Assembly: GCA_964413335.1 (NCBI GenBank)
Contig: CAYPSP010000001.1
Location: 1 to 28,625 of the forward strand
From: an uncultured Dehalococcoidales bacterium
GTDB lineage: Bacteria; Chloroflexota; Dehalococcoidia; GIF9; AB-539-J10
Direction of reading: 5' to 3'
Length of the DNA: 28,625 bases
Position numbers and translations under genes: made by a program. The notes under the pieces are model-generated. The model did not search any database and had not been told where the DNA came from. It saw only the letters and a program-made list of their open reading frames with translations. Shown here piece by piece: positions 4,612-10,487 of this stretch (position 1 is its first letter; each line of letters opens with the position of its first letter).

Positions 4612-5310
4612 ATGAGGATTTTTAGAGGTATTGCTGCTAAGTTATTTATTTTTTGTGTTTCTCTGACTCTTGTCACTGGTACTATTCAATTGGAGATTAA
4701 TAGTGTTCGTCTTTATGAATATGGGTTCGATAAGTATGCTGTAAGTGAGGATACAGGGATTGATAGACAGCAGTTGACCGAGGTTGCTGAGGCGTTGGTA
4801 GGTTATTTCAATTATAAGATAGAAACACCACAGTTAACCGTACACGTGAGGTCTAGTAAAGAAATCTTACTGTACCAGGAAAATGAGCAGAATCGTGAAC
4901 TCACCCATCTTGCCGATGTTCGACGCCTGTTTTTGCTAAATTCCTTGATTTTAGTGGTAAGCCTGGTTTATCTGGCTACTTATATTTTAGCCTTCTTGCT
5001 GTGGATAAAAGGCAACTGGAGTGATTTAGTAAAAAGAGTTAGCTATGGTTGTGCTTTGACTCTGGCTGTTATGGTTATTGTGGGACTGGCTACCCTTTTT
5101 GTTGATTTTGAACAACTATTTCTCCAATTCCACCATCTTGCCTTTAGTAATCCATGGTGGGCAAGTACTGGCTATCTACCTAGATTGTTTCCCGGATATT
5201 TCTGGGAGGATGTTGCTCTTTTAGGTGCTGGTTCTATAGTTGTAGGGGCTTTAATTTTAGGCAGTATTGCTTGGGTAATACCAAGATGGTATTTAAAGAG
5301 GAAGGGCTAG
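4612..5310 (+). CDS. DUF1461/TIGR01906-family integral membrane protein
   Basis: N-terminal TM, RELTHLADVRRLF and FLQFHHLAFSN..W motifs, several TM helices; ATG at 4612 preferred over the track start 4573. Confidence 0.8.
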   Translation: MRIFRGIAAKLFIFCVSLTLVTGTIQLEINSVRLYEYGFDKYAVSEDTGIDRQQLTEVAEALVGYFNYKIETPQLTVHVRSSKEILLYQENEQNRELTHLADVRRLFLLNSLILVVSLVYLATYILAFLLWIKGNWSDLVKRVSYGCALTLAVMVIVGLATLFVDFEQLFLQFHHLAFSNPWWASTGYLPRLFPGYFWEDVALLGAGSIVVGALILGSIAWVIPRWYLKRKG

Positions 5311-8458: not shown

Positions 8459-8944
8459 GTGGGGTACCGTGATATTTCTGCACAATGTATTGATGTCGCC
8501 TATCGTTATCTAAGTTATCGTCCTAGAAGCGAAGGGGAAATGAAACAGAGACTGCGGAAACGCGGTTTTGAGCCAGAGGTAATTGAAAAGACCATTGAGA
8601 AGCTTAAAGAACAAGATATAATCGACGATTATGCTTTTGCTAGATTTTGGAAAGATGCTCAATTATCTAATAAACCCAAGAGTAAACGATTGATAATTGA
8701 GGAACTTACTGATAAGAATGTGGAGGAAGGGATTATTAAACAGGTGACTGAAGGTATAGATGATGAAACTAATGCCTATACTCTGGGGAGTAATAGGGCG
8801 CAAACACTAACTCACTTGGATTATACTAGCTTTAGGCGGCGATTGGAGAATGTTCTTAGTTACCGTGGATTTAGCTATGGGATTATTAAGCATACGATAG
8901 ATATCTTGTGGAAGGAAAAAGATCAAGGGGGCTCTACACTATAA
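8459..8944 (+). CDS. recX: Regulatory protein RecX
   Basis: AYRYLSYRPRSEGEM, IDDYAFARFW, LSYRGFSY motifs; directly after recA. Confidence 0.93.
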   Translation: MGYRDISAQCIDVAYRYLSYRPRSEGEMKQRLRKRGFEPEVIEKTIEKLKEQDIIDDYAFARFWKDAQLSNKPKSKRLIIEELTDKNVEEGIIKQVTEGIDDETNAYTLGSNRAQTLTHLDYTSFRRRLENVLSYRGFSYGIIKHTIDILWKEKDQGGSTL

Positions 8945-9096
8945 TGATAGATTGGAATTTGGCTGTAAAGATCGCAGCAGGTGGCTTTGGCTTGGTTTTT
9001 ATCATACTAGTGGTCTTGGGTTTTACAGTTCGAATAACTAAGCTAGTTTCTAACAGGCTTGATAAGGGCGAGCCAAAAAAAAGACAACAAACATAG
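8944..9096 (+). CDS. OadG-like gamma subunit (single TM, 50 aa)
   Basis: ATG overlaps recX stop (TAATG); MIDWNLAVKIAAGGFGLVFIILVVLGFTVRI matches the gamma-subunit pattern of a TM followed by a basic stretch; sits directly before the beta subunit. Confidence 0.6.
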   Translation: MIDWNLAVKIAAGGFGLVFIILVVLGFTVRITKLVSNRLDKGEPKKRQQT

Positions 9097-9143
9097 TTGC
9101 TTTATATAAACTATTATAGCGAAAGGCGATTGGAGGAACAAAG

Positions 9144-10487
9144 GTGTTTGGGTTATTAGAGACTGGCTTTCAACATTTCTATTGGGGCAATGCCTTGGTG
9201 ATTGCCATTGGTAGCCTGTTTATTTACTTAGGAGTTGCCCGAAAAATGGAACCATTGTTATTGGTTCCAATTGGATTTGGTATGATTCTGGTTAATTTGC
9301 CTCTTGGTGGGGTGATGGACTATGAACTCACACTACGAGCTCCTATAGAAGGTCATGTGGTGCAGGTCCAGATGGAGGAAGGGGAAAAGTTTAAGGAGGG
9401 GGATATCCTCTTTGAACTTGATTCTGGAGAGGTGAAAGCTCCTGTTTTTGGAAGAGTAGATGAGATTAAGGTCTCGCCAGGACAATATGTGAAGGCGGGA
9501 CAAGTACTGGCTTCAACGTTGACCATGGAGCAAACCGACCAGTCAGTTATTCCAACGACTCCAATAGGTATTCTATCAAGGATATTTAAGTTTGGGATTA
9601 TGTGGCAATTTCTGCCACCGATTATGTTCCTTTGCCTTGGTGCCTTGACCGATTTTGGTCCGATGCTGGCTAATCCGAAAACACTGCTGTTAGGTGCCGC
9701 TGCACAGTTTGGAGTATATCTTGCCTTCTTTTTGGCGTTGGTTGTAGGTTTTAATCTTACTGAAGCGGCTTCAATAGGTATAATAGGTGGAGCTGAAGGA
9801 CCAACAACCATTTATGTTACTTCTATTCTAGCTCCTCATTTGATAGGAGCTACTGCTGTGGCATGCTACTCATATATGGCACTTGTTCCTATTATTCTTC
9901 CTCCAGTAATTAAGTTGCTCACTACAAAGGAGGAAAGAGCCATTTATATGAAACCGCAGCTACGACACGTCTCGAAGTTAGAAAAAGTTCTATTTCCAGT
10001 AATAACCACAATTGTTGTAGTTCTTTTAGTTCCTGATGCTGCTCCTCTCATGGGACTTTTCATGATAGGCAATTTATTTAGAGAGAGTGGTGTTACTGAA
10101 AGGCTTAGTGAGGTTGCCCAGACATCGTTAGTTGACATTGTGACCATTTTCCTGACTCTGGCCATTGGCGCAAGTATGCCTGCTGAGGTATTTTTACGAC
10201 CAAGAACACTACTGATACTGGTTTTGGGGGTTGTAGCTTTCTCCACTGCAGCAGGAGCCGGCGTAATACTGGCGAAAATAATGAATTTATTCTCTAAAGA
10301 AAAGATAAATCCGATGATTGGGGCTGCAGGTGTGTCAGCTGTACCAATGTCTGCGAGAGTGGTACAGGTATTGGGGCAGAAGGAAAATCCAAGGAACTTC
10401 TTGTTGATGCATGCTATGGGACCTAATGTTGCTGGAGCTATTGGCGCAGCTATTGCTGGAGGCGTTTTCCTGGGAATACTGGGATAA
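9144..10487 (+). CDS. oadB: Na+-translocating decarboxylase beta subunit (OadB/GcdB/MmdB family) with inserted biotinyl/lipoyl-like domain
   Basis: EPLLLVPIGFG, GALTDFGPMLANP, GIIGGAEGPT, YSYMALVP, NPMIGAAGVSAVPMSARV, HAMGPNVAG motifs; GGAGG SD and GTG start. Confidence 0.93.
   Translation: MFGLLETGFQHFYWGNALVIAIGSLFIYLGVARKMEPLLLVPIGFGMILVNLPLGGVMDYELTLRAPIEGHVVQVQMEEGEKFKEGDILFELDSGEVKAPVFGRVDEIKVSPGQYVKAGQVLASTLTMEQTDQSVIPTTPIGILSRIFKFGIMWQFLPPIMFLCLGALTDFGPMLANPKTLLLGAAAQFGVYLAFFLALVVGFNLTEAASIGIIGGAEGPTTIYVTSILAPHLIGATAVACYSYMALVPIILPPVIKLLTTKEERAIYMKPQLRHVSKLEKVLFPVITTIVVVLLVPDAAPLMGLFMIGNLFRESGVTERLSEVAQTSLVDIVTIFLTLAIGASMPAEVFLRPRTLLILVLGVVAFSTAAGAGVILAKIMNLFSKEKINPMIGAAGVSAVPMSARVVQVLGQKENPRNFLLMHAMGPNVAGAIGAAIAGGVFLGILG

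Follow-up and report, generated by a model that had tools for sequence, protein, structure and literature searches.

The open reading frame at 9144-10487 of the window (the whole 28,625-nucleotide stretch of DNA analysed here, from an uncultured Dehalococcoidales bacterium) codes for the membrane subunit of a biotin-dependent decarboxylase pump, the part that decarboxylates carboxybiotin and translocates cations. In the loop from helix T2 to helix T3', this subunit holds an insert that, according to our models, is a barrel-sandwich domain of the biotin-carrier type whose biotin turn has been lost. Such an insert is predicted to be incapable of carrying biotin, because the A-M-K-M turn is lost and no lysine is conserved. 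By a small preference over all other readings combined, we regard it as a co-opted, BCCP-derived structural cap that would sit on the scaffold domain outside the membrane.

Gene and protein family

ORF 9144-10487 on the forward strand starts with a GTG at 9144, seven bases after a GGAGG at 9132-9136, and encodes 447 aa. The whole protein matched PF03977 (OAD_beta; E 1.4e-148, 495.1 bits against a cut-off of 31.6) and TIGR01109 (487.7 bits, above the curated threshold of 190.6), and phmmer aligned the Salmonella OadB chain 6iva_A with the ORF at E 1e-111. A full-length AlphaFold2 model (87-row alignment; pLDDT 92.7, pTM 0.88) superposed on 6iww_A (E 3e-27, TM 0.79/0.84, rmsd 2.5 Å) and thus showed the solved beta-subunit fold, that is, scaffold plus core with two helical hairpins. 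In the N-terminal segment the model had helices at residues 14-31 and 37-50. An artefactual or chimeric gene call was ruled out: the frame is unbroken, the ribosome-binding site is good and the architecture recurs, the 447-448-aa form having been found again in more than 100 protein clusters (74-92% identity) and in 31 species-level genomes. The features of the locus are as follows.

8944..9096, + strand: small OadG-like (gamma/delta-type) membrane subunit of ~50 aa; the likely ATG at 8944 overlaps the recX stop (PF04277, TIGR01195)
9144..10487, + strand: beta subunit of a biotin-dependent cation-translocating decarboxylase (OadB/GcdB/MmdB family), 447 aa (PF03977, TIGR01109, 6iva_A, AF2 model against 6iww_A)
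9144..9314, + strand: N-terminal segment with T1, a short basic loop A-R-K-M-E (Glu36, equivalent to Salmonella Glu40) and T2 (alignment to Salmonella OadB 11-61; charge table)
9315..9557, + strand: insert, residues 58-138, in place of Salmonella 'domain E' (residues 62-118) (phmmer alignment)
9321..9524, + strand: predicted folded BCCP-type barrel-sandwich hybrid domain, residues 60-127 (model strands; Foldseek and VIA matches to BCCPs; PF00364, PF13533)
9417..9431, + strand: hairpin L92-D93-S94-G95-E96 at the position of the E-A-M-K-M biotinylation turn, four residues shorter and without Lys (alignment gap)
9525..9563, + strand: conserved polar linker T-x-E-Q-T-D/N-Q ... P-T-x-P, leading from the domain to T3' (conservation in 54 variants)
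9795..9797, + strand: codon 218, GAA, encoding Glu in place of the Na+-site Asp203 (hairpin H1 tip; alignment)
10446..10448, + strand: codon 435, encoding Ala at the position of Ser419 in T10, beside the H1 tip (alignment)

An insert with a carrier fold and no biotin turn

In the phmmer alignment, query residues 7-57 corresponded to residues 11-61 of Salmonella OadB and residues 139-443 to 119-427, and the insert remained unaligned. The sequence-only reading that preceded this work had described a biotinyl/lipoyl-like insertion in OadB, made up of two quasi-repeats at residues ~62-127 (9327-9524, an interval that falls within the folded domain), and had proposed a Pfam search of the region. 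Biotin_lipoyl profiles indeed matched the insert, which lies outside the OAD_beta alignment. When residues 55-140 were searched alone, PF13533 (Biotin_lipoyl_2) was found at 5.7e-14 as two stretches that are the two quasi-repeats, and PF00364 at 2.3e-9 (37.4 bits, cut-off 22.1), as for a carrier domain; the HlyD_3 and HlyD_D23 profiles matched the same residues.

The same reading had claimed that the link between the two halves is four residues shorter than in carriers and lacks Lys. We aligned the insert with 8hz4_E, with the 71-aa BCCP of a Syntrophales operon and with the OadA-type alpha subunit of the same genome. Both pairwise and phmmer alignments contained a single gap of exactly four residues opposite the carriers' A-M-K-M, where the query reads L-D-S-G-E-V, and an LDSGE-type turn without MKM was present in 86 of 86 distinct insert variants among those listed. 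No Lys was conserved in the 54-row insert alignment, the highest column holding 44% Lys, and the insert has no modifiable Lys in the M-K-M context of a carrier domain. By contrast, the L, D and G of the turn, P100, G103, R104 and several fold glycines were conserved in at least 90% of the 54 aligned variants, as were the M-D-Y where T2 ends and the linker residues T127, Q130, T131, Q133, P137, T138 and P140.

Both modelled alone from the 54-row alignment (pLDDT 94.6, pTM 0.81) and within the full-length model (pLDDT 92-96), the insert was all-beta, with strands at residues 60-65, 70-75, 88-92, 95-98, 103-108 and 121-127; in the full-length model the linker at 9525..9563 was coil (pLDDT about 86-92). 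Failure to model as a barrel-sandwich, which would have spoken against the sequence-only reading, did not occur: at a pLDDT of about 95 the model matched the Pyrococcus horikoshii BCCP 5gua in Foldseek with TM 0.89, rmsd 0.6 Å and 32% identity, and 2d5d_A in VIA with a Z-score of 12.7 over 66 residues. BCCP domains were the best structural matches. Lipoyl domains of periplasmic adaptors reached VIA Z-scores of 10.5-12.4, with discontinuous alignments and a higher rmsd than the BCCPs.

Membrane side and topology

The sequence-only reading had not assigned the insert to either membrane face. Judged from the alignment, the insert shares with 'domain E' its location, solvent-exposed and between T2 and T3'. 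It does not share the four-helix fold (aE1-aE4) of that domain, being all-beta. According to the Salmonella structure paper, domain E is poorly conserved and missing from some OADs, and its helix aE4 contributes 250 Å2 per trimer interface. The same paper lists Glu40, Thr148 and Asp149 as cytoplasmic-face residues, with T1-T10 as transmembrane helices, and describes a negative outer face; its own orientation rests on the positive-inside rule and the gamma tail. Glu40 (Glu36 here) stands immediately before T2, and Thr148/Asp149 (Thr169/Asp170 here) immediately after T3. Since a single transmembrane helix separates each of these cytoplasmic flanking residues from the loop, homology to the Salmonella structure 6IWW makes it likely that the insert is located on the outer face of the cytoplasmic membrane.

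The charge pattern of the protein itself agrees with such a placement. Clusters of K+R lie in the predicted-inside loops (A-R-K-M-E, residues 260-281 and residues 384-420), the insert contains 7 K/R against 15 D/E, and the median net charge of the insert in 54 variants is -8. An older PhoA/LacZ topology model of Klebsiella OadB reportedly has the N-terminus inside; that model would place the insert loop inside and counts against an outer cap. On the outer face, the insert would have access neither to biotin ligase and the alpha subunit nor to the carboxybiotin site, which is on the cytoplasmic face. By homology to 6IWW it would thus be excluded from the cytoplasmic setting, with ligase and catalytic partners, that characterizes a carrier domain.

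Partner subunits and genomic context

ORF 8944-9096 matched PF04277 (OAD_gamma) weakly, at E 3.5e-5 and 24.9 bits, which is under the cut-off of 27, and TIGR01195 at E 6e-4. Small genes were found at the equivalent position in a related Dehalococcoidia contig (49 aa) and in the Syntrophales operon (44 aa). The source genome contains one OAD_beta gene, an OadA-type alpha subunit with a genuine biotinyl domain (contig C220; PF00364, E 1e-18), one Carboxyl_trans protein (contig C254) and a gene of the biotin-protein-ligase family. The partner subunits of a pump, namely small anchor, carboxyltransferase and biotin carrier, are all represented, the anchor by the weak match of the small OadG-like ORF.

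The Syntrophales operon is complete and has the order carboxyltransferase, 71-aa BCCP, 44-aa protein and, last, the insert-bearing beta subunit, with the BCCP two genes upstream of the latter. In Dehalococcoidia the order dnaE-lit-recA-recX-small ORF-beta is identical to that in the window. True biotin carriers are encoded apart from the insert-bearing subunit.

Distribution, phylogeny and selection

The best 120 matches in a 90%-clustered protein collection were almost all 447-448 aa long and 74-92% identical to the query, and mostly combined PF00364 with PF03977; a few of them, from Syntrophales or Deltaproteobacteria MAGs, were named "sodium ion-translocating decarboxylase subunit beta". 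An 80-85-residue insert was present in 31 of the best 80 species-level loci, which belong to Dehalococcoidia/Dehalococcoidales, Syntrophales/Syntrophaceae/Syntrophus sp. and Thermodesulfobacteriota. The architecture occurred in more than 100 metagenomic protein clusters, and anaerobic digesters, sediments and aquifers are rich in members of the insert-bearing clade. When the family was represented at 50% identity (5357 matches; proteins with long N-terminal extensions left out), the T2-T3' loop varied from 0 to 158 residues with unrelated contents; sister Dehalococcoidia proteins have 17 residues there. In a Pfam scan of 56 proteins, namely the query and its 55 nearest representatives with 400 aa or more, PF00364 was found in only one protein besides the query.

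At this site other OadB lineages (L035, L036 and P0122) carry inserts of a different kind, which resemble Biotin_lipoyl domains more weakly. In addition, a 499-aa OadB form (P0127), whose nearest atlas cluster occurs most often in Verrucomicrobiota, has an extra ~60 residues at the turn.

The characterised enzymes have either the helical domain E (Salmonella, Klebsiella) or no domain at this site (GcdB, 35-39 kDa). A wide occurrence of the insert among characterised, ordinary OadB/GcdB proteins would have undermined the sequence-only reading, which had asked for a survey of homologues; the architecture was not found in characterised OadB or GcdB. Databases tag it automatically, while our search of the literature returned no description of it, nor of OadB in Dehalococcoidia.

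For phylogenetic analysis we used FastTree on the core columns, with the insert left out. All proteins with the ~80-residue insert formed one clade (support 100), which spans two phyla and in which every member has the insert. Because the basal branches of this clade are Dehalococcoidia and the Syntrophales group is nested within them (support 97), the tree points to a transfer of the insert-bearing gene from Dehalococcoidia to Syntrophales. The median dN/dS (Nei-Gojobori, 40 pairs with unsaturated dS) was 0.20 for the insert versus 0.06 for the core, which indicates that the insert is under purifying selection and less constrained than the membrane part.

A changed cation site

At the H1 tip, where Asp203 is expected, the protein has Glu218. 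Because of this deviation we class the product of ORF 9144-10487 as a divergent OAD_beta subfamily and not as a canonical OadB. The pair Glu218 and Ala435 was found in 30 of 31 clade loci, and Asp plus Ser or Thr in all 55 other loci and representatives checked. The other ion-site and coupling residues are kept: E36, D170, Y244, S398, R405 and N428, equivalent to Glu40, Asp149, Tyr229, Ser382, Arg389 and Asn412 in Salmonella/Klebsiella.

In the Klebsiella OAD, the D203N/E exchanges left 0% activity with loss of Na+ transport, and S419A left 10% activity (supplement of PMC7274780); our literature search for D203E found nothing apart from this supplement. The clade carries both changes naturally, although in the Klebsiella enzyme either one by itself is enough to eliminate activity (D203E) or to reduce it to 10% (S419A). 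Lineages that have other barrel-sandwich inserts retain Asp and Thr, so the insert and the cation-site change are separable.

Origin and possible role of the insert

The insert and the BCCP of the Syntrophales operon are 36% identical (E 6e-11). This similarity suggests descent from a carrier, and the insert probably arose from a segment of a biotin-carrier gene. An origin from a membrane-fusion protein was considered and rejected: HlyD/RND_mfp profiles reach one half-domain, whereas the BCCP matches span the whole domain at 30-36% identity. The fold alone does not settle the origin, because the VIA Z-scores of BCCPs and membrane-fusion proteins are nearly equal (12.7 vs 12.4).

According to the preferred reading, a segment of a carrier gene would stand in the T2-T3' loop in place of domain E, without its A-M-K-M turn. 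This carrier-type domain of 66 residues, followed by the polar linker, would lie beyond the cytoplasmic membrane, out of reach of biotin ligase, the real carrier and the alpha subunit. There it would cap the scaffold (trimerisation) domain as a rigid, acidic unit and keep still while the core moves as an elevator. This would be part of the role of Salmonella domain E, and the cap would resemble the cofactor-free barrel-sandwich domains of periplasmic adaptors. The sequence-only reading had offered three roles, namely occupation of the carrier docking site, binding of a partner, and a structural role as in membrane-fusion proteins; the last fits our results best. A purely structural role leaves unexplained the strong conservation of the L-D-S-G turn, the F-G-R motif and the T-x-E-Q-T-D-Q linker, which could form a binding surface.

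These conserved elements would be accounted for if the insert were an extracytoplasmic functional module, a reading that we hold to be unlikely but to deserve some weight. The acidic domain, turn and linker would then bind a partner (the small subunit through its N-terminus, or an envelope or S-layer protein) or shape the outer cation vestibule. In the vestibule version Na+/H+ could, for example, be concentrated or gated while the pump is open to the outside, which would perhaps let energy-limited anaerobes run it reversibly. Strong conservation of the surface motifs L-D-x-G, P-x-x-G-R and T-x-E-Q-T-D/N-Q, a median net charge of -8 per domain and a dN/dS of 0.20, indicating selection above the expectation for a spacer, are in line with such a module, as is the co-occurrence of the insert with Glu218/Ala435 in 30 of the 31 clade loci. 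However, no adjoining partner gene is conserved across both phyla (loci in Syntrophales and Dehalococcoidia), the outer face of the Salmonella protein is likewise acidic without such a domain, and the normal Asp and Thr are kept in other lineages that have a barrel-sandwich insert. A more speculative scenario, to which we give a somewhat lower chance, is that a carrier domain was copied from the decarboxylase's own carrier, moved to the outer face of the pump and co-opted there. Together with the Glu/Ala site it would mark a subfamily born in Dehalococcoidia, with altered ion coupling or reversibility, that was passed to Syntrophales. Dehalococcoidia and Syntrophales are organisms that live near the thermodynamic limit.

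It is also conceivable, though we think it quite improbable, that the insert is a neutral passenger, a carrier fragment that happened to enter a permissive loop and is simply tolerated there. The T2-T3' loop is a hot spot (0-158 residues, unrelated contents), and the insert changes at about 3 times the rate of the core. Yet a dN/dS of 0.20 is far from neutral, the length of the insert is held at 80-85 residues in 31 species-level loci and 86 listed variants, the insert was retained after transfer between phyla, and its fold is predicted with confidence. The reading with the smallest chance is a mimic in the cytoplasm, that is, a dead carrier that would dock at the carboxybiotin site of the beta subunit or at the alpha subunit and regulate or block the pump in a BADC-like manner. 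The sequence-only reading had spoken of a non-biotinylatable carrier mimic fused into the pump: the non-biotinylatable, carrier-type domain stands, whereas the role as a mimic conflicts with the outer placement that we infer. Occupation of the docking site finds no support for the same reason, as on the outer face the insert would be kept apart from BirA, from the carrier and from the alpha subunit. In sequence and fold the insert is nearest to real BCCPs, and the fusion-based topology of Klebsiella OadB is said to have its N-terminus inside, both of which suit a mimic. Against it, the loop is flanked by two transmembrane helices whose far ends are cytoplasmic in the solved structure, and domain E, its positional equivalent between the same helices, is dispensable. 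Moreover, the insert is strongly acidic, as outer loops are expected to be, and a tethered inhibitor fixed clade-wide under purifying selection would be odd.

If the cap reading holds, an entire carrier-type domain can be accommodated in the scaffold domain's variable outer loop, and the biotin-carrier fold would have found a second use on a membrane face where biotin chemistry is impossible. Biotin-dependent decarboxylase pumps are among the few primary Na+ pumps, and to our knowledge only one beta-subunit structure of such pumps exists. The insert-bearing clade would be a good target for studying both the role of an outer domain in an elevator-type pump and a cation site made of Glu and Ala. 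The automatic annotation of insert proteins as 'biotin-requiring enzyme' should not be taken to indicate a fused carrier.

Comparison with known systems

The protein shares with Salmonella/Klebsiella OadB (6IWW, 6IVA) its family, fold, T1-T10 and two helical hairpins. In both systems a small single-helix subunit is encoded immediately upstream and the T2-T3' loop holds an extra domain. That domain consists of four helices in ~57 residues in Salmonella, whereas here it is predicted to be all-beta and BCCP-like in ~80 residues. Asp203 and Ser419 are replaced by Glu and Ala, and the small subunit, at ~50 residues, is without the long C-terminal alpha-binding tail of its Salmonella counterpart.

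With BCCP domains (PF00364; 2D5D, 5GUA; the GcdC/MmdC-type 71-aa carrier) the insert has in common a contiguous barrel-sandwich fold (rmsd 0.6 Å over 66-69 residues), 30-36% identity and both A-P-x-x-G-x-V halves. Unlike them, it has neither the A-M-K-M turn nor a conserved Lys and is embedded in the loop of a membrane protein; its predicted extracytoplasmic position would preclude both modification by biotin ligase and service as a swinging arm.

Periplasmic adaptors (AcrA, MacA, EmrA, HlyD, BesA) likewise use a cofactor-free barrel-sandwich as a packing module on the outer side of the cytoplasmic membrane, which is the side we infer for the insert. Their halves are joined by an alpha-helical hairpin, in contrast to the 6-residue turn of the insert. 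The insert also lacks the beta-barrel and the membrane-proximal domain of an adaptor protein, and the adaptor profiles PF13533, HlyD_3 and RND_mfp gave half-domain matches only (29-34 residues).

The BADC proteins of plants are lysine-less BCCP paralogues that inhibit acetyl-CoA carboxylase. Like the insert, they have a BCCP-like domain incapable of biotinylation. BADC proteins, however, share the compartment of their enzyme and compete with its carrier, whereas the insert is predicted to lie across the membrane from the carrier that it resembles.

Ion site and history of the insert-bearing clade

The window beta subunit carries substitutions at two codons of its ion site (Klebsiella/Salmonella OadB numbering for the residues replaced):
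9795-9797, Glu218 at the place of the Na+-site Asp203
10446-10448, Ala435 at the place of Ser419

This Glu/Ala pair was present in 30 of the 31 insert-bearing-clade loci and in none of 55 further OadB sequences that were examined. In the Klebsiella enzyme, the D203E mutant has no activity and the S419A mutant retains 10% (supplement of PMC7274780). The combination may represent a compensated pair or an altered ion site.

In the core-column tree, the insert-bearing loci (L004-L034) and the window protein were monophyletic. Dehalococcoidia formed the basal branches, and the Syntrophales/Thermodesulfobacteriota copies, with a core identity of 75-86%, were nested within. This branching order suggests that a Syntrophales acyl-CoA decarboxylase operon received its beta subunit from Dehalococcoidia.

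Associated subunits

A small OadG-like subunit is encoded upstream:
8944-9096, OadG-like small subunit, ~50 residues

The likely start of this ORF overlaps the stop codon of recX; a related Dehalococcoidia contig (L093) has the genes in the same order, recA-recX-small ORF-beta. The small subunit of relatives has 44-49 residues. In contrast to the Salmonella small subunit, whose long C-terminal tail binds the alpha subunit, the OadG-like protein lacks such a tail.

We also searched the organism's own assembly (84% complete; relevant contigs C220, C254, C72 and C56), which encodes one acyl-CoA carboxyltransferase and an OadA/PycB-type alpha subunit whose gene adjoins a member of the aconitase family. 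No clear biotin carboxylase was found in this 84%-complete assembly, the matches being limited to carbamoyl-phosphate synthase and a weak hit to ATP-grasp; the alpha subunit may therefore be a decarboxylase working with the window pump rather than a pyruvate carboxylase.

Other insertions in the T2-T3' loop

The OadB loop between T2 and T3' is a hot spot: among family representatives (P0122-P0271) its length varies from 0 to 158 residues, with unrelated contents. Many of the long members are instead extended at the N-terminus by 100-250 residues, which have no Pfam match. The nearest insert-free Dehalococcoidia OadB (L037-L066; e.g. L037:379-489) carry a conserved 17-residue loop at the insert site (consensus M-E-T-I-V-x-G-x-V-V-E-x-Y-x-x-G-G), which looks like a single beta-hairpin and may be a remnant or a precursor of the inserted domain. 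Distinct, weakly Biotin_lipoyl-like inserts (E 3e-6 to 4e-4) occupy the same loop in other OadB lineages:
L035 (locus), 4802-5125
L036 (locus), 8536-8859
P0122 (family representative), 45-146
P0127 (family representative), 50-200

The ion site of these lineages has the usual Asp and Thr. The atlas cluster nearest P0127 (499 aa) is commonest in Verrucomicrobiota, and the ~60 residues inserted at the turn of P0127 are reminiscent of membrane-fusion proteins.
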